This document shows, in pieces, positions 13,056 to 19,624 of a stretch of 64,000 nt of DNA. Made by a program: the position numbers and the translations under genes. The stretch is taken from NCBI GenBank assembly GCA_030535355.1, contig JAUNIO010000002.1, forward strand, positions 8,781 to 72,780, written 5' to 3'. The stretch is from a bacterium. Its GTDB lineage: Bacteria; Vulcanimicrobiota; Xenobia; Xenobiales; Xenobiaceae. The notes below the pieces were generated by a model. That model made no database searches, had not been told where the DNA came from, and was given only the letters and a program-made list of their open reading frames with translations. Numbering within the stretch: the first letter of the stretch is position 1; each line of letters begins with the position of its first letter.

Positions 13056-14406
13056 AAAGAAAAAATCTCTCCCTCCCTCCAAGGCCAGTATTTGGCGGCC
13101 CGGTTTAGGCATTAAGCGCTGTTTTTTCGCTCTGGCTGCCGGGTTTATTTTCTTATGCTGCGGCATCATTCTGCTTTTCAGCACCACCTGGGCACTATGC
13201 GTGGAAGAAAGCTTGACAAACGCCAGCTTAAATTGGCTGGGGTGGCACATTTCCAGCTTTAGCGTCGATATTTTTCTACTGGTTTTAGGGCTTGTATGTC
13301 TGGGTTGGGGACTGTGGCGAGCGGCTTCGTTCCTTTATAACGCGTCTCAGGCCCACCCCAGCTCTAGCATGATGGATGCCCTGGCCTTAGGGCGGCGGCG
13401 CAATTACGGTCTGAAGATCGTGGCCTTAGGCGGCGGTACTGGCTTATCTACACTGCTGCGCGGCCTCAAAAAATACACCTCCAATATTACCGCCGTAGTT
13501 TCCGTTTCCGACAACGGCGGCAGTTCGGGACGGCTTTCCAAGGAACTGGCGATGCTGCCCCCCGGCGACATCCGCAACTGCCTGACCGCCCTGGCCGACG
13601 ACGAAGACCTGCTGACCGAGCTGTTCCGCTTCCGCTTCGATAAAGGGGAAAGCCAAAGTTTAGGAGGCCACGCTTTCGGAAACCTTTTTATAGCCGCCCT
13701 GAACCAGATTTACGGCGACTTTGAAGTAGCTTTAAAAAAAGGCAGCGCCCTGCTGGCCATCCGCGGCCGGGTTCTTCCCGCCACATTAACAGCTACGGTG
13801 CTGTGCGCGAAGATGCGCGATGGGCGGATTATTAAAGGAGAAAGCGAGATTCCCAGCGCTCAGGGAGAGATCACCGATGTATTTTTAGAACCTGGCAGCT
13901 GCCAGGCACCCCCCGAGGTGATTAAAGCTATCGAAGAAGCCGACGCCATCATTTTGGGGCCGGGAAGCTTATACACCAGTGTCATGCCCAACCTGCTGAT
14001 CAAAAATATCGTCAAAGCGCTGGAGCGCACCGAAGCCCCCATTATTTATGTCTGCAACGTGATGACTCAAAACGGGGAGACCGACGGCTATACGGCAGCC
14101 GACCATTTGCAGGCCATCTATCACCATCTCAAAAAGCCCCTGGTCGATTACGTAATCGCCAATGCCAGCGCCCCCAACAAAAAACTGCTGGAAAAATACG
14201 CTAAAGAAGGTTCAAAGCCGGTGGTTCTGGATTACGAGCGCCTGCAAAGCATGGGAGTGCATCCAGTTTATGCCAAATTATCCAAAGATGAGCAGCTGGT
14301 GCGCCACGATCCCGACTATTTAGCTGAAGCGATTATGGATCTGCTGGGAGAGGTCAAATACCGCGACGGCTCAGAAGGCGCGGACAGCATGAGATCGCCG
14401 AATTAA
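13024..14406 (+). CDS. YvcK / CofD-like (UPF0052, gluconeogenesis-factor family) protein with an unusual ~130-aa N-terminal extension carrying two predicted TM helices.
   Basis: The core starts KIVALGGGTGLSTLLRGLK. It overlaps rapZ by 32 nt, the conserved rapZ-yvcK arrangement. The N-terminus has hydrophobic segments (FFALAAGFIFLCCGIILLF, IFLLVLGLVCLGWGLW). Confidence 0.8.
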   Translation: MTAKTTTNTPKKKKSLPPSKASIWRPGLGIKRCFFALAAGFIFLCCGIILLFSTTWALCVEESLTNASLNWLGWHISSFSVDIFLLVLGLVCLGWGLWRAASFLYNASQAHPSSSMMDALALGRRRNYGLKIVALGGGTGLSTLLRGLKKYTSNITAVVSVSDNGGSSGRLSKELAMLPPGDIRNCLTALADDEDLLTELFRFRFDKGESQSLGGHAFGNLFIAALNQIYGDFEVALKKGSALLAIRGRVLPATLTATVLCAKMRDGRIIKGESEIPSAQGEITDVFLEPGSCQAPPEVIKAIEEADAIILGPGSLYTSVMPNLLIKNIVKALERTEAPIIYVCNVMTQNGETDGYTAADHLQAIYHHLKKPLVDYVIANASAPNKKLLEKYAKEGSKPVVLDYERLQSMGVHPVYAKLSKDEQLVRHDPDYLAEAIMDLLGEVKYRDGSEGADSMRSPN

Positions 14407-14771
14407 TTTATTTCTTTTACAAATGGTTTACAAAATGTTAAAAATCAACTCAACCTACAGGTTGACTAATTGTTCATTCAGAGATATTATTAAACCGCAG
14501 TCAACAGTCAATGCAGTTAGTCTACTCTAGATTGCAGAACGCTATTCTGGCTGCCCTGAATGGAATAATCTGCAAAGATTAAACATAGAAGGTCTTAAAA
14601 AAAATTAAACGCATTCAAAACTGTTGGTAGCAGTAAAAAATGCGTTCAATATCTCAGAAGTGCTATCACTCCTAAAGCTTACAACTGGTATGATAGCACC
14701 TCTGAGAGGCTATGTCAAGCGTTAATGAGACGTATGGCTAGCTTACATATACTCTCAGAGGAGGCAATAAT

Positions 14772-15446
14772 ATGTCCAAAATACGGGCAACAATCGCAGA
14801 TGGCTGCGATTCAAGTATTATTCCTGGTCTTCAGTACGATGGATTATTAGGTATCCCGCTTATCAAAAGGCCAGACAAAATCATCATTCCGAAAAACATC
14901 GTACCATTTTCCAAACGCAATTACACAGCCGATCTCGACGTAGCCATCGGATTCTACGAGATGGACGAAAAATTTGCTGATTTGCTCTGCCATCCGGAAG
15001 CATATGTCGAAGATTTAAGTCGCTTTTCAGCGATAATCTCTCCCGACTGTTCTCTATACCTGCCCAACTCACTGGGCAGCCACATTACTAACATATATAG
15101 AAGCCGGCTTATCGGCTGCTTCTTTCAGGCCAAACGCCTGTACGTCATACCTCAAATCCGCTGGGGCAAAGAAACTACTTATACGGCAGGGGCATTGCAA
15201 GAAAAAGCTGCTTTCCTCGGCGTTGAAAAACACAGCATTGTAGCGATCGGCACTTACGGCTGCTGTCAGCACAGAGAAGAAAAGCGCCATCTCAAAGCTG
15301 GGTTAAGTGCTATGCTAGATACGGTACAGCCAGATACCGTGTTGGTGTATGGGCCTATGCCTCCGGCAATTTTCGGCGAGTTCCTCCAAAGAACAAACTT
15401 TGTTCCTTACGACAACTGGTTAAAACGCGTAAAGGGAGGACAATAG
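14772..15446 (+). CDS. Uncharacterised protein of 224 aa, paralog A of the island pair.
   Basis: It is homologous over its whole length to the 16545..17210 product (IPxxxRPxKIxIP, VIPxxRW, YTAxxL, FVxYxxW). An RBS (AGAGGAGG) is present and it lies in a low-GC context. Confidence 0.6.
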   Translation: MSKIRATIADGCDSSIIPGLQYDGLLGIPLIKRPDKIIIPKNIVPFSKRNYTADLDVAIGFYEMDEKFADLLCHPEAYVEDLSRFSAIISPDCSLYLPNSLGSHITNIYRSRLIGCFFQAKRLYVIPQIRWGKETTYTAGALQEKAAFLGVEKHSIVAIGTYGCCQHREEKRHLKAGLSAMLDTVQPDTVLVYGPMPPAIFGEFLQRTNFVPYDNWLKRVKGGQ

Positions 15447-15447
15447 T

Positions 15448-15957
15448 ATGGGTAGCGGCAGCAGTTATTCCTATTCTGGAACCAGCGGCGGGTCGCAGCC
15501 CTACGCTGAAACCTACGGGGTAGTTCCCGAAGCGCTCAACAAAGACAAGAAAGACCCCGACATTTACGATAAAGCAGAAGGGTATTTCAAGAATCCGACA
15601 GCAGTATCTCTAGCTTCCGCTATAGATGGTAACAGAGTGACTTTTAATAATCTCAGCGCCCATGGAAAATACACTTATGTTATGGATAAGAACGGCAATA
15701 TTATCTTTGGTAAACGTTGCAATCCTAATGACATAAGCAAACGTTCTCCTCATCCTACGCTCATTGGAGGTAAAAATCCACAAGTGCAATGCGCAGGTAT
15801 TATCGCGATGAGCAAAGGGAAAATCACCAATATAGATAATATGAGCGGACATTTTAAGCCGCATCATAGATCTTTAAATAAGGTTTATGACGCTCTTCAT
15901 AAACTGCATGAAAGCAATCCTAACATCTTCTCTACACGTTTTCAATGGAGGGAATAG
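15448..15957 (+). CDS. Candidate toxin of 169 aa with a Gly/Ser-rich N-terminus and a C-terminal HNH/EndoVII-like motif (sGH-x3-HH-x3-N-x7-H).
   Basis: It starts 1 nt after paralog A with a GGGAGGA RBS. The motif is MSGHFKPHHRSLNKVYDALHKLH. It is immediately followed by a small acidic ORF. Confidence 0.5.
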   Translation: MGSGSSYSYSGTSGGSQPYAETYGVVPEALNKDKKDPDIYDKAEGYFKNPTAVSLASAIDGNRVTFNNLSAHGKYTYVMDKNGNIIFGKRCNPNDISKRSPHPTLIGGKNPQVQCAGIIAMSKGKITNIDNMSGHFKPHHRSLNKVYDALHKLHESNPNIFSTRFQWRE

Positions 15958-15959
15958 GT

Positions 15960-16418
15960 ATGGAAGAAGAGATATTAAGTTATGAAACCGCTTCTTTATT
16001 TAATCGTTCTTTCGAAGAAGAGATCACAGATGCTGAAGAGACAGCATTACTAGATCGCGCAAACGCTTTAATTAATACGTTTGGCTGGAAAAAGGTGTTT
16101 AACTCTTGGAATAACTACCTTCACCACCAATGCCTAACTCCAGAATCTGCGATCAATTTCGCCAATTGGTTCTGGTTCTATGGAGGTCATGAGCACCCAA
16201 TCCCCAATCCTTATCATTTTATAGCGTATTTCTATTATCGTATTGACTATGCAATTCAGAAATATGACATTTCGGATATCTTGGATAGTCTCGCTACCAG
16301 CATCTTGCCCAAAGCAGGCCATCGCGAAGCGGATTTATATCTAAATCCCTACTACATGCCGGAAAGTGACCCCCAAATACGGGCAGAAGTTGAAAAGCTC
16401 AAAAAACAAAACAGCTAA
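15960..16418 (+). CDS. Candidate immunity or partner protein (~153 aa, acidic, Trp/Tyr-rich).
   Basis: The ATG lies 2 nt after the preceding stop, with a GGAGGGAAT RBS. It has no recognisable domain. The ORF track gives an in-frame upstream start at 15945 that would overlap the toxin stop. Confidence 0.45.
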   Translation: MEEEILSYETASLFNRSFEEEITDAEETALLDRANALINTFGWKKVFNSWNNYLHHQCLTPESAINFANWFWFYGGHEHPIPNPYHFIAYFYYRIDYAIQKYDISDILDSLATSILPKAGHREADLYLNPYYMPESDPQIRAEVEKLKKQNS

Positions 16419-16544
16419 CCACACCAGACTACGCCAGAAGAATTCTCACTGCTAAAGCTTCAAAGCATCTCAATGAGTACTTCTGGCTTCATTTTCACTG
16501 CACAGCACTTGTTTGATAATAGCTATTGTCAGGAGAGAAAACTC

Positions 16545-17210
16545 ATGCCGAAACAACAATACCGCGACGACGGCTGTAACCCAGAAATACTTGCTGGGGC
16601 AAAATTTGCAGGCACTCTAGAAATACCAGTCGTAGAACGGCCTAGCAAAATCGTTATACCAGATACGCCAGTTCCTTTTTCACAGCACGCACAATGCCAA
16701 AATCAAAACGCTTTCTTAGTCATCTCCGAACCTGATGTCAATTTCTCTGATATTCTGCGCAATCCAGAACCTTATTGCCAAATCGCTAACAATTACGCAG
16801 GCATAATAACTTTAGAACCCGCTCTATTCACTGGAGCTAAGCTAGCTGAACAAATCGCTGTAACCCAGCGCAACCGCACTTTGGCACATTGTTTTCAAAG
16901 GCACTGCGTTGAAGTTATCCCACATCTGCGCTGGAAAGACAAAAATAGCTATACAGCGACCGTTTTGCCAGATAAAATCGCCTTAATAGGTCTGCCCCTA
17001 AACAGCATTGTGGCCTTGGAAACTAATTCATGTCTTAATAGCGACATGGACAAACTGCGTTTACAGTTAGGCCTACAAGCCGTTCTGGAAGAACTGCAGC
17101 CGCAAATTATTTTAATATTCGGAGCTATGCCTGACGAAGTATTCTCCAATTTTCAGCATGATACCGTATTTGTCAATTATAATCCATGGCCACCAACAAC
17201 ATCTTTATAA
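16545..17210 (+). CDS. Uncharacterised protein, paralog B of 14772..15446.
   Basis: It is homologous to paralog A. The start at 16545 is preferred (RBS AGGAGAG). The upstream region is homologous to the region upstream of paralog A. Confidence 0.6.
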   Translation: MPKQQYRDDGCNPEILAGAKFAGTLEIPVVERPSKIVIPDTPVPFSQHAQCQNQNAFLVISEPDVNFSDILRNPEPYCQIANNYAGIITLEPALFTGAKLAEQIAVTQRNRTLAHCFQRHCVEVIPHLRWKDKNSYTATVLPDKIALIGLPLNSIVALETNSCLNSDMDKLRLQLGLQAVLEELQPQIILIFGAMPDEVFSNFQHDTVFVNYNPWPPTTSL

Positions 17211-17324
17211 ATCGGCAGCAAACTACCAGCGGCTTACATCAACCTTCTGGTTGATAATATTCGTTACTTGGTGTAAACTACTTCACGTTAGCGGATGGTA
17301 AAACAACAATGGGGAGGTGAGCAC

Positions 17325-17699
17325 ATGCTGACAAGTTTAGGCAAGTTTTTGAGAAAACTGCGCATAGACAGAGGAGAGATACTACGCGACATGGCGGACA
17401 AACTTGGCGTTACAGTATCATTTCTCTCTGCTGTTGAAAATGGCAAAAAAAGAATGCCCTCATTATGGAATAACAGAATCTGTGAGCTATATAGCCTGGA
17501 TATACATCAGCAAGAATCTTTTACAAAAGCGATAGCTGAAACAGAAGATACCATTGAAATGAATTTAACTTCAGCCAGCGCCAACAGACGGGAATTAGCT
17601 ATTGCTTTCGCGCGCTCTTTTCACAATATCGATACTGAGCAGATAACTGCCATTCATAAAATACTACAGAAAAGGAAGCAAAGCAATGACCAGCATTAA
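17325..17699 (+). CDS. XRE-family helix-turn-helix transcriptional regulator.
   Basis: The N-terminal HTH (LRKLRIDRGEILRDMADKLGVTVSFLSAVENGKK) and a GGAGGTGA RBS support the 17325 start. Confidence 0.7.
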   Translation: MLTSLGKFLRKLRIDRGEILRDMADKLGVTVSFLSAVENGKKRMPSLWNNRICELYSLDIHQQESFTKAIAETEDTIEMNLTSASANRRELAIAFARSFHNIDTEQITAIHKILQKRKQSNDQH

Positions 17700-18213
17700 A
17701 GCTAACCCTATATCTCGGATAGAAATTAGAAAAATAGCCTATATTATACGTGCCATAGCCGATACGCTCAACAGTCCTTATTTTCCAATAATATATTTTA
17801 TTGAGCATACTTTACCAAGAGATATGCCAGAATTCAATTACGAAATTGTTAATCTACAAGATATGCCTCACAATCATGCTGAAACACATCCTGACCAAAA
17901 CCTAATACAAATTAGGGAAGATGTATATCTTAGGGCTATAAAGGGCTGTGGTAGGGATCGCTTTACCCTTGCTCATGAACTAGGCCATTTATTATTACAT
18001 AGAGCCAACTGCATTTCATTATGCAGATTAGCTCCTAATAAAAGATTAAAACCATACGAAAACCCGGAATGGCAAGCCAATGCTTTTGCAGGGGAGCTAC
18101 TTATGCCGATAGATATAATCAAAGATATGAGTATCTATCAAATCTGTCATCAATGCGGCGTTTCTGCAGATGCCGCCCGGTGTCAGCTCAGCTTACTTAA
18201 AAATGCCAGATGA
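17686..18213 (+). CDS. ImmA/IrrE-family (COG2856) zinc metallopeptidase.
   Basis: It has the HEXXH motif (LAHELGHLLLH) in the typical context and overlaps the XRE gene by 14 nt, the classic XRE-ImmA pair. Confidence 0.75.
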   Translation: MTSIKANPISRIEIRKIAYIIRAIADTLNSPYFPIIYFIEHTLPRDMPEFNYEIVNLQDMPHNHAETHPDQNLIQIREDVYLRAIKGCGRDRFTLAHELGHLLLHRANCISLCRLAPNKRLKPYENPEWQANAFAGELLMPIDIIKDMSIYQICHQCGVSADAARCQLSLLKNAR

Positions 18214-18268
18214 CCATTGAGCACTCTGCACTTCGTCCCCCCCCCTTGTTTAGCAAACACTAAATCCG

Positions 18269-19624
18269 CTAGACCTCAGAATCTCCCAGCTCCCCATACA
18301 TGCGCTCCAGCATCTCCTCAGCCCGGGCACTGCCCTTCTCCGCCGCCTGACTCAGCAAATGCAGCGCCGCTTCAGGATCTGCGGGAATGCCCAAGCCGCC
18401 CTGATAAAACTCTGCCAGAGAAATCATAGCCTCAGTATGGCCTGCCGCCACCGCCCGTTTCAGGAAACCTACACAGCGCTTGACATTTTGCTCCACGCCC
18501 TCTCCGCGGAAATACATAAACGCCAAAATATACATAGCCGCCGGATGGCCTTCGTCAGCGGCACAGCGCAGATAGTGCACCGCTTTGGGCAAATCCTGCT
18601 CTGTATTATGCCCTAAACGATACATCTGCCCCACAGCGAACTGAGCGTCCACATGGTCGCGATCTGCAGCCATCTGCGCATAACGCCAGGCTTCTTGAGG
18701 ATCGCGGGGGATACCATCACCAGAATCGTACAATTTGCTCAGCATGTACATGGCCTGGGGCCAGCCCATATCGGCGTCATCCTGCAGAAGCTGCACAGCC
18801 TGCGCCACATCTTTGGGCACAATTCCCCCCTGCAGATATAAAGACGCCAAAAAAGTCGATGCTCCCACCACGCCCTGAGAAGCCGCGTCGCAGATTCTGG
18901 AAATATTATTGTATAGATCTTCTGGCGGACAGTTATTCATCAGCGCACAGGCGGCATCTATGAATTTGCGTTTTACCGGTGAAGCTACCATATTGCCAAT
19001 AGCTTTCCCTAAATGCTGCAGCTGCGCCACAGTAGGTATATCTTGCCATTCCGCCGTTTCCGCAAATTCCTGCAGCGATTCATTCGGGCTGCGGCGCAGA
19101 GATTCTATAAGCTCGCGGCGCAGCTGAGGCTCCACAGGCCAGCCGTATTTATCTATGCCGTTCATCAGCACCGAATCGGAAACATCGCAGCCATGCCCGG
19201 CAGCTAAACACAGATACTCGCCGCCTTTCACCGCATCTTTGGGCACACCTATGCCGTAAGAATACATCTGCCCTAAACAGCCGTAAGCGTAGGGATTGCC
19301 CAGTTCCGCAGAGCGGTGCATTAGGCGCAAAGCTTCGGGACATTCCCCCATGAAGAGATTGTCTGCCAGCAGCAGCAGAGCGTACAGGACCATAGCGTCG
19401 GCATGGCCGCTTTCCGCAGCCTGCTTCACATAGCGCCGGCACAGCTCTAAATTCACTTCACAGCCCACTCCGCTCAGGCACATTTTCGCTACGCAATAAG
19501 CCGCATCGGCATGCCCATTATCGGCGGCGCGCCTAAAAGATTTAAACGCCAAAGCCTCATCTTCAGCCAGAGCGCCGGAAACGTCCTCTGAACCAGTATT
19601 GTTCGAAGTATCTGCCGCCATCAT
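18269..19624 (-). CDS. Sel1-repeat (TPR-like) protein.
   Basis: 451 aa with ~36-aa repeats recurring more than 8 times, each with G-x-G-V/I-x-x-D and A-x-x-W/Y-x-x-A-A-x-x-G. Confidence 0.8.
   Translation of the reverse strand: MMAADTSNNTGSEDVSGALAEDEALAFKSFRRAADNGHADAAYCVAKMCLSGVGCEVNLELCRRYVKQAAESGHADAMVLYALLLLADNLFMGECPEALRLMHRSAELGNPYAYGCLGQMYSYGIGVPKDAVKGGEYLCLAAGHGCDVSDSVLMNGIDKYGWPVEPQLRRELIESLRRSPNESLQEFAETAEWQDIPTVAQLQHLGKAIGNMVASPVKRKFIDAACALMNNCPPEDLYNNISRICDAASQGVVGASTFLASLYLQGGIVPKDVAQAVQLLQDDADMGWPQAMYMLSKLYDSGDGIPRDPQEAWRYAQMAADRDHVDAQFAVGQMYRLGHNTEQDLPKAVHYLRCAADEGHPAAMYILAFMYFRGEGVEQNVKRCVGFLKRAVAAGHTEAMISLAEFYQGGLGIPADPEAALHLLSQAAEKGSARAEEMLERMYGELGDSEV

Follow-up and report, generated by a model that had tools for sequence, protein, structure and literature searches.

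Gene content and composition of the island

The locus described here is a low-GC island at positions 14407-18268 of the window, that is, the full 64-kb stretch of DNA that was analysed, and it carries a putative toxin-immunity cassette followed by a predicted repressor-protease pair. The source-identical contig, designated L001, was also used for gene calls, and loci in other genomes are numbered in the same way. Six open reading frames (ORFs) in the same direction fill 14772-18213 (ORF list and gene calls on L001).

A1, 14772-15446, plus strand: 224 amino acids (aa), DUF4417, the cassette's constant partner gene, TIM-barrel-like fold predicted
B, 15448-15957, plus strand: 169 aa, leader-tagged putative toxin
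C, 15960-16418, plus strand: 152 aa, acidic, putative cognate immunity protein
A2, 16545-17210, plus strand: 221 aa, divergent DUF4417 paralog, not followed by a toxin gene
XRE, 17325-17699, plus strand: 124 aa, helix-turn-helix repressor, CapH-like
ImmA, 17686-18213, plus strand: 175 aa, ImmA/IrrE-type M78 zinc metallopeptidase with the motif HELGH, putative anti-repressor protease

A preliminary description, made from the sequence, had reported a low-GC island at this position. Indeed, the GC content of the island (41.7%, compared with 50.5% for the window) was the minimum of 1203 equal-length sliding stretches, making it the lowest-GC stretch of the 64 kb. GC at third codon positions was 30-48% in the island genes and 57-73% in rapZ, yvcK, the Sel1 gene and the PALP gene. 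A foreign composition of the island is thus supported. The coordinates agreed with the tight gene spacing described earlier (spacers of 1-2 nt), with 1 nt between A1 and B, 2 nt between B and C, and an overlap of 14 nt between XRE and ImmA. The reported absence of mobility genes also held, as no integrase or phage structural gene was found within the island and no tRNA in the 64-kb window. A repeat search over 14000-18600 detected no flanking direct repeats. When A1, A2 and YvcK were looked up by exact match, only the same contig was returned, and a relative with an empty site was not found. A relative with proteins 87-88% identical (L164) carried the island at the same site after yvcK, in the order A1-B-C-A2.

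A1 and A2 belong to the DUF4417 family

A1 and A2 had been described as full-length paralogs sharing motifs but belonging to no recognisable family. The first part was correct (224 and 221 aa, with IPxxxRPxKIxIP, RW..YTA and FVxYxxW in common). The second was not, since profile searches assigned both to Pfam DUF4417 (PF14386), a named though uncharacterised family, with A1 (E = 1e-40, 139.6 bits) and A2 (E = 5e-22, 78.7 bits) above the gathering score of 28.9 bits. Both proteins also matched phrog_8680 and the C-terminal half of phrog_940, and they aligned with each other at 35% identity over 207 ungapped aa (E = 9e-49).

The homologs of A1 numbered 448 at E <= 1e-3, and just 4 were detectable for A2, which deviates at near-invariant family positions (TLEPALF for SPDCSLY, ETNSC for GTYGC). 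An A2-like gene was also present 3′ of another DUF4417-toxin-immunity set, in L077. A2 may be what is left of a tandem cassette, or it may serve as a second partner. The two homologous cassettes proposed earlier describe the island incompletely, as the conserved unit of DUF4417, toxin and immunity gene is represented by the first cassette only. In L078 (144-956), XRE is deleted and a 270-aa ORF combines the N-terminal ~60% of A2 (86% identical) with a C-terminal segment of ImmA, indicating that the right half of the island is still decaying. This ORF adjoins a 454-aa gene on the opposite strand which occupies the position of the Sel1 gene in the window. A1, B and C retain every family-invariant residue.

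The DUF4417 model was predicted to be TIM-barrel-like and enzyme-like. The near-invariant polar residues of the family (E63, D65, D92, C93, S94, Y96, R130, W131, T161, Y162 and C164) lie directly after predicted beta-strands, which in TIM barrels form the catalytic face, and it is this placement that points to an enzyme. A tentative likeness of the model to tRNA/DNA transglycosylases was also seen. The TGT-type zinc site CxCxxC...H was not present in the DUF4417 alignment, which contains two isolated near-invariant cysteines only (C93 and C164), and E63, D65 and D92 are acidic candidates whose equivalence to the three invariant active-site aspartates of TGT was not established by alignment. 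Alignment of the DUF4417 profile with E. coli TGT by hhalign was not significant, and its weak pairing of ISPDCSLY with IFDECTPY was disregarded. A tblastn search for phage DpdA, with E. coli TGT as the query, returned bacterial-type TGT genes only. NCBIfam and PADLOC (E <= 0.1) gave no match for A1, B, C or A2, and PDB sequence searches with A1, B and the DUF4417 profile gave none either. In the searchable literature DUF4417 is uncharacterised, the sole functional remark being its frequent fusion in phages to a ParB-CTPase fold. A colicin-like lysis role for DUF4417 was considered and set aside, as the protein has no signal peptide, is fused to ParB in phages and lies near packaging rather than lysis genes.

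DUF4417, B and C form a conserved cassette

In a scan of one genome per species, B was found in 68 loci, the majority from the gut or rumen, representing Bacillota, Bifidobacterium, Anaerolineaceae, Synergistaceae, Bacteroidaceae, Fibrobacter, Planctomycetales, Succinivibrionaceae and a deltaproteobacterial metagenome-assembled genome. The order DUF4417-B-C was conserved in about 50 of these species-level loci with unrelated flanks, and spanned Bacillota, Actinomycetota, Chloroflexota, Synergistota, Bacteroidota, Fibrobacterota, Planctomycetota and Pseudomonadota; in Holdemanella and Mobilibacterium, for example, the three genes occupied unrelated chromosomal contexts. A few loci were ordered B-C-DUF4417, and some contained two tandem cassettes. 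These comparisons strongly support A1-B-C as a conserved mobile unit.

Genes of known or candidate defence systems recurred directly upstream of the cassette in other genomes, and an MmeI-like enzyme was also found nearby. The upstream genes were as follows.

ABC-3C: L024, L042, L052, L053, L062
Type I restriction-modification: L002, L018, L022, L025, L059
nSTAND NTPase: L031, L041, L050, L055, L056

B carries a toxin domain shared with large polymorphic toxins

B is a basic protein (pI 9.4) with a Gly/Ser-rich N-terminus, and was divided as follows.

B residues 1-~20: shared Gly/Ser-rich leader
B residues ~45-165: putative toxin domain outside Pfam

A total of 430 homologs were found, all of about 170 aa; among the 120 listed, identities were 56-69% with a single exception at 88%. 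The B profile matched 1082 cluster representatives among 1.84 billion, and its core (profile positions about 43-155) formed the C-terminus of proteins 200 to 7535 aa long, those sampled including DUF6531 with RHS repeats, RHS with PT-HINT, VgrG-like and eCIS_core (DUF4157) architectures. Likewise, in Bacteroidota (L065, L068-L070) the B domain terminates long ORFs of 1150-1340 aa. The same core terminates Rhs, PT-HINT, VgrG and extracellular contractile injection system (eCIS)-type proteins, and the sequence comparisons strongly support it as a polymorphic-toxin domain absent from Pfam. Just two plasmids contained B, in both cases as the domain alone.

Residues R90, N92, H102, S133-G134-H135, P138 and S142 were invariant across the homologs. 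The HNH/EndoVII-like string to which the preliminary description drew attention is present in B, but only S133-G134-H135 and P138 of it are invariant. The HNH/EndoVII assignment was rejected, as the 'HH' and the later N/H are variable, the invariant His/Asn/His of a beta-beta-alpha-metal motif was not found, and B has neither a Pfam match nor a fold relative in the PDB. Neither B nor C matched Pfam, NCBIfam, PADLOC, PHROGs or PDB sequences.

A short leader is shared by interchangeable toxins

Metagenomes and viral contigs were scanned with the DUF4417 alignment, and the ORF starting at the DUF4417 stop codon was examined. B followed 107 of 153 sampled DUF4417 genes, a sample biased towards B because 68 loci had been found via B itself. 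The remaining genes were followed by other toxins, including EndoU_bacteria (E = 6e-10 and 3e-15), Ntox50 (E = 1e-27), DUF6883 (E = 1e-12), an ADP-ribosyltransferase (ADPrib_exo_Tox, E = 7e-19) and several proteins with unassigned domains. The DUF4417-linked toxins had a common leader, M-G-[ST]-G-x-S-G-x-Y-x-[GN]-T-x-G-[GS], after which their Pfam domains begin; in B it reads MGSGSSYSYSGTSGG. No DUF4417 gene was found near B-domain proteins that lack the leader. It is thus strongly supported that DUF4417 is the constant partner of unrelated small toxins which carry one 15-residue leader. An interaction between DUF4417 and the leader is suggested by their co-occurrence only.

Two such sets were seen on one Anaerolineaceae contig (L013, 518-3143 and 6161-8956), both arranged as XRE-ImmA-DUF4417-toxin-immunity and carrying an EndoU toxin and B-C, respectively. 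The 939-aa ORF between them is presumably a DNA-methylase/type IIG enzyme, judging by the look of its sequence.

Several hallmarks of polymorphic toxins (Zhang et al. 2012, PMC3482391) were recognised. The B core is a C-terminal domain common to multidomain toxins, the leader is a constant N-terminal part joined to alternative toxin domains, and a downstream immunity gene, with orphans elsewhere, is present, although protection itself is a prediction. A trafficking element (signal peptide, type V to VII secretion system, PVC, PrsW or MuF) was not found when A1, B and C were searched against Pfam. The same study lists eight trafficking modes of polymorphic toxins, none involving DUF4417 (PMC3482391).

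Phage-encoded versions of the cassette

DUF4417 was found in 503 phage records, of which 385 were from Mycobacterium, 57 from Streptococcus and 39 from Gordonia phages. Two DUF4417-toxin sets were contained in viral contig L161 (IMG/VR, 1-6500), one arranged as TerS-TerL-DUF4417-ADP-ribosyltransferase-like toxin and the other, after a Fic gene, as DUF4417-EndoU toxin-127-aa ORF. In Mycobacterium phage ArcherNM (L166, 391-2296), gp1 is a DUF4417 protein annotated as 'nuclease', and gp2 matches ADPrib_exo_Tox (E = 7e-19). The small protein gp3 comes next, and gp4, at the genome end, is an HNH endonuclease. The gp2 protein starts with MGKRGGSGGGGG, in which MGKRGG is followed by a long Gly-rich linker. 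The gp1-gp3 set resembles the window cassette, and the start of gp2 appears related in its MG and Gly-rich character.

In a human-gut 'Bacteriophage sp.' scaffold (L168, MT835627.1, 2861-6666), an ImmA-like gene and a DUF4417 gene (45% identical to A1) were followed by a toxin of unassigned type starting with MGGGKGGLYIGT, a 198-aa ORF and a serine recombinase; the recombinase hints at a possible route of cassette movement. In Streptococcus phage MM1 (L165, 4066-4812), ORF29 (248 aa, no Pfam match) lies 3′ of a ParB-DUF4417 fusion and has an internal Gly-rich stretch, GGGRGANFEKGKDGKYPGFRGAGGARDSGSS. ORF29 may be a related cargo protein in which the leader is internal rather than N-terminal.

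C is the likely immunity partner of B

C is acidic (pI 4.85) and lay directly 3′ of B in nearly all complete related loci, its profile detecting 127 family members among the collected loci. Tandem copies of C were present in L025, L027, L029 and L064, and orphan modules of a B fragment with C in L071, L072 and L074, none being found in the window. Consistent with this distribution, C is likely the cognate immunity partner of B. The toxin/immunity-like pair with an acidic partner that was proposed earlier is thus upheld by the behaviour of the two genes as a pair, with the partner corrected from 153 to 152 aa.

The C profile did not detect the genes 3′ of the long Bacteroidota toxins. A separate 130-aa family with the motif DDFFWHHKDQKYYY was observed 3′ of those toxins that end in a divergent B domain (L065, 6273-6668; L066, 614-1024; L068, 8438-8848; L069, 8319-8738; L070, 8406-8792), and is probably a second immunity family for this domain. 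More generally, the gene order strongly supports the small variable gene after each toxin as the immunity-gene position.

Linkage to KptA suggests an RNA target

A gene for KptA/Tpt1 RNA 2′-phosphotransferase (PF01885, E = 5e-41) was found close to B-C in 29 of the 68 species-level loci. It lay directly after C in 11-13 loci, those with KptA directly 3′ of C being L014, L027, L028, L029, L038, L040, L046, L050, L055, L062 and L064. In three loci (L017, L019 and L043), an XRE-ImmA-KptA operon was divergent from the cassette, and KptA was also found beside B-C remnants without DUF4417. KptA strips the 2′-phosphates that remain after repair of cleaved RNA (PMC9503650). Together with the metal-independent RNases among the alternative toxins and the invariant His, Arg and Ser residues of B, this linkage suggests that RNA is the target damaged by B.

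Predicted operators, promoters and RNA structures

The regulatory elements predicted in the island are given below.

O1, 14450-14465: operator-like palindrome TCAACC-TACA-GGTTGA, right arm overlapping the cassette -35 box
O2, 17239-17254: operator-like palindrome TCAACC-TTCT-GGTTGA, overlapping the XRE-ImmA -35 box
Predicted sigma-70 promoter of the A1-B-C(-A2) operon, 14462-14490, plus strand: TTGACT, 17 nt, TATTAT, 10/12 consensus matches
Predicted XRE-ImmA promoter, 17251-17279, plus strand: TTGATA, 17 nt, TAAACT (consensus scan)
Stable hairpin in the long A1 5′ leader, 14652-14707, plus strand: 17-nt inverted repeat, 94% complementary, holding the first 26-nt element
Hairpin between C and A2, 16433-16487, plus strand: GCCAGAAG ... 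CTTCTGGC, then a T-rich run, holding the second 26-nt element

The pattern TCAACC-N4-GGTTGA had only these two matches in the 64 kb even when one mismatch was allowed, with 0.11 expected. In L164 the arms of the palindrome were identical and the spacer was changed, and upstream of the XRE homolog in L013 the same half-site occurred within an inverted repeat.

XRE matched HTH_31, HTH_19 and HTH_3 as well as PADLOC capH (E = 8e-8, full profile), and ImmA matched Peptidase_M78 (E = 3.5e-13) and PADLOC capP (E = 1.4e-17, peptidase core only). As an adjacent pair, the two genes have the arrangement of CapH/CapP-type regulators. The preliminary proposal of a protease-controlled module of an XRE regulator and a HEXXH peptidase is thus borne out by domain and PADLOC matches. 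Its placement of the pair as cargo of a second cassette is not, as the pair is better read as the regulator of the entire island. Among 52 cassette loci, an XRE+ImmA pair was located upstream in 6, a fused XRE-ImmA in 3 and another XRE in 10, and a close homolog of the window XRE was located upstream of the DUF4417 cassettes in L013. The recurrence of XRE/ImmA pairs in front of such cassettes is strongly supported. In CapH/CapP, ImmR/ImmA and DdrO/IrrE, DNA damage leads to cleavage of a repressor bound to the controlled promoter (Lau et al., bioRxiv 10.1101/2022.04.27.489752). By this analogy, XRE probably represses both island promoters until it is cleaved by ImmA.

The preliminary description had noted homologous DNA upstream of the two paralogs. 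Such homology is real but extends over merely 26 nt at 81% identity (14655-14680 and 16435-16460, about 117 and 110 nt before the starts). A degenerate pattern of this element matched these two sites only in the window, and none of 100 shuffles. The fold of 14640-14780 was more stable than shuffled sequences (z = -4.07), and the stem of the A1 leader hairpin was kept in L164, where a single C-to-U change still pairs. Beyond close relatives, the 26-nt element and the leader hairpin were not conserved in other genomes. An Rfam scan of 13800-18800 gave no matches at E <= 1, which places the A1 leader hairpin outside known RNA families. A riboswitch-like ON/OFF model was dropped because its second stem (14699-14761), which would hide the ribosome-binding site, was not conserved in L164. 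The arms of the hairpin between C and A2 were kept in L078 and L164 while the loops differed; this structure is possibly a leaky terminator or a processing site.

The best promoter-like match of the island was on the minus strand at 14690-14718 (TTGACA, 17 nt, TATCAT, with an upstream TG; 11/12). Lying inside the A1 leader hairpin, it may reflect an antisense transcript or a chance match.

Proposed mechanism and alternative explanations

The anatomy of the system is secure: DUF4417, a leader-tagged toxin, an immunity gene and an XRE/ImmA switch, arranged as an inducible unit. We interpret the island as a horizontally acquired, repressor-controlled toxin-immunity cassette, and hold this interpretation, together with the following mechanism, at about even confidence. 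XRE would bind TCAACC-N4-GGTTGA and keep the cassette as well as its own operon silent. On DNA damage or phage infection the ImmA-type peptidase would become active, XRE would be cleaved by it, and the ensuing derepression would allow DUF4417, toxin B and immunity protein C to be made. In the producer cell C would neutralise B, while DUF4417 would recognise or process the shared leader and the toxin would thereby be loaded, activated or handed over. B would most likely be a metal-independent nuclease that damages RNA, and A2 would be a divergent spare DUF4417, either left over from a tandem cassette or serving as a second partner. We lean slightly towards a toxin aimed at other cells or invading elements, rather than at producer suicide only, on account of three observations: immunity genes occur as orphans and in extra copies, Rhs, VgrG and eCIS toxins use the B domain, and phages carry complete sets next to packaging genes. 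In a further extension, which we consider rather unlikely, DUF4417 would provide a new loading or activation route: a TGT-like TIM-barrel enzyme, directed to nucleic acid and often fused to ParB in phages, would recognise the 15-residue leader and link the toxin either to DNA or to particles of phage or phage-like type, and the toxin would travel with injected DNA. Chromosomal cassettes would use this route on induction, and genes 1-3 of the cluster A mycobacteriophages would be the same system.

Several observations weigh against the interpretation as an inducible toxin-immunity cassette. The toxicity of B, the immunity conferred by C, recognition of the leader, and both binding and cleavage of XRE are predictions from sequence. 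A1, B and C have no secretion signal, transmembrane segment or trafficking domain known to Pfam, and the cassette occurs in monoderm and diderm phyla alike. B was not found in any of 2.9 million viral contigs or 50,697 phage records, and no KptA gene is present in the 64-kb window. The window has XRE-ImmA downstream of its cassette, unlike L013 and L018, where the pair is upstream. CapH/CapP-type regulators are typical of defence operons, and this fits intracellular abortive infection equally well, as do the defence-gene neighbours in other genomes.

These last points lead to intracellular anti-phage defence of the abortive-infection or toxin-antitoxin type, which is a real though less probable alternative. 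Here DUF4417 would sense or modify phage nucleic acid and release or activate B via the leader, C would be the antitoxin, and XRE/ImmA would raise expression on DNA damage or infection. Such a role would account for the type I restriction-modification, ABC-3C, STAND NTPase and MmeI-like neighbours in other genomes, for regulators like the CapH/CapP pairs known on defence operons (bioRxiv 10.1101/2022.04.27.489752), and for a compact, self-contained and chromosomal cassette that has neither export machinery nor export signal across differing envelopes; phage-encoded DUF4417 could then be a counter-measure. It fits less well with PADLOC-DB 2.0, which matched the regulators only and gave no defence family for A1, B, C or A2. 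Moreover, extra and orphan immunity genes with orphan toxin fragments are the signature of toxins that come from outside, delivered toxins of the Rhs, VgrG and eCIS types make use of the B domain, and phages carry complete DUF4417-toxin-small gene sets beside packaging genes.

Decay of a mobile element or prophage accessory region, leaving a remnant without function in the present host, is improbable. The foreign composition, the divergence of A2 at near-invariant positions without a toxin of its own, the deletion in the relative L078, by which XRE is lost and the A2 N-terminus becomes joined to the ImmA C-terminus, the absence of an integrase and of flanking repeats, and the unusual downstream position of the regulators would all be expected of such a remnant. 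The window nevertheless holds six intact, tightly coupled ORFs, with all family-invariant residues kept in A1, B and C; L164 has the same site and A1-B-C-A2 order at only 87-88% identity; and the operator arms are conserved while the spacer drifts. We assign little probability to a Dpd-like modification and restriction system, in which DUF4417 would be a DpdA/TGT-type transglycosylase marking self by base exchange in DNA or tRNA, B would attack unmarked nucleic acid and C would restrain B. When compared with the DpdA/DpdB 7-deazaguanine DNA modification system (PMC10164549), DUF4417 had no significant sequence or Foldseek similarity, lacked the zinc site and the preQ0 pathway genes, and was about half the size of DpdA.

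If the island is indeed a repressor-controlled toxin-immunity cassette, it would provide the first functional context for DUF4417, which is found in hundreds of phage genomes and many gut and rumen bacteria. The known set of polymorphic toxins would gain a new toxin domain (B) and a new family of immunity proteins (C), and the short shared leader would be a handle for genome mining of further toxins. Bacterial KptA/Tpt1 would be tied to a specific toxin, a possible pointer to its natural substrate, and the compact six-gene locus with its predicted operators would be suited to dissecting what the partner enzyme does and which route the toxin takes.

Comparison with known systems

The preliminary description had taken the island for an undescribed conflict module. 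In agreement with this, the cassette is a polymorphic toxin system of a widespread type for which a published description was not found in the literature.

Colicin operons resemble the proposed cassette in being damage-inducible and in comprising a nuclease toxin, a tightly linked acidic immunity protein and a third helper gene, which in colicins encodes a lysis lipoprotein. Colicins have receptor-binding and translocation domains, which are absent from B, and DUF4417 has no signal peptide. In type VI secretion systems (T6SSs), the adaptors DUF4123, DUF1795 and DUF2169 act as constant helpers that recognise a constant part of variable effectors, which are accompanied by immunity proteins. These triads have the same gene order as the cassette, but the adaptors serve a T6SS in the same genome, whereas no apparatus is linked to the cassette and DUF4417 is enzyme-like rather than chaperone-like.

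At the level of regulation, the window resembles CapH/CapP, ImmR/ImmA and DdrO/IrrE in pairing an XRE repressor with an M78 HEXXH peptidase whose gene overlaps that of the repressor. The window peptidase differs from CapP in being short (175 aa) with a match to the catalytic core only, and the pair lies downstream of the operon that it would control.

The system also resembles the MuF phage-capsid toxins in its variable RNase and ADP-ribosyltransferase domains and its immunity genes (Zhang et al. 2012, PMC3482391; Jamet et al. 2017, PMC5576092), and both systems are phage-encoded near terminase and packaging genes. MuF toxins are thought to be packaged and injected (PMC3482391; PMC5576092). 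They are fused to the MuF head protein, whereas the DUF4417-linked toxin is a separate small leader-bearing protein, and the window copy lies outside a prophage.

The nearest published layout is that of S8-PTS, a three-component polymorphic toxin system of Gram-positive bacteria (Li, Tan and Zhang 2022, PMC9424270). Like the window system, S8-PTS combines a constant accessory enzyme, a constant N-terminal part joined to exchangeable toxin domains (many being BECR RNases), and an immunity gene (PMC9424270). The accessory enzyme of S8-PTS belongs to the subtilases, and both a signal peptide and a BetaH domain are present in its toxins (PMC9424270). The window system instead has a cytoplasmic, TIM-barrel-like DUF4417 partner, a leader of ~15 residues as the whole of its constant part, and no signal peptide, in a layout that extends over many phyla and phages.

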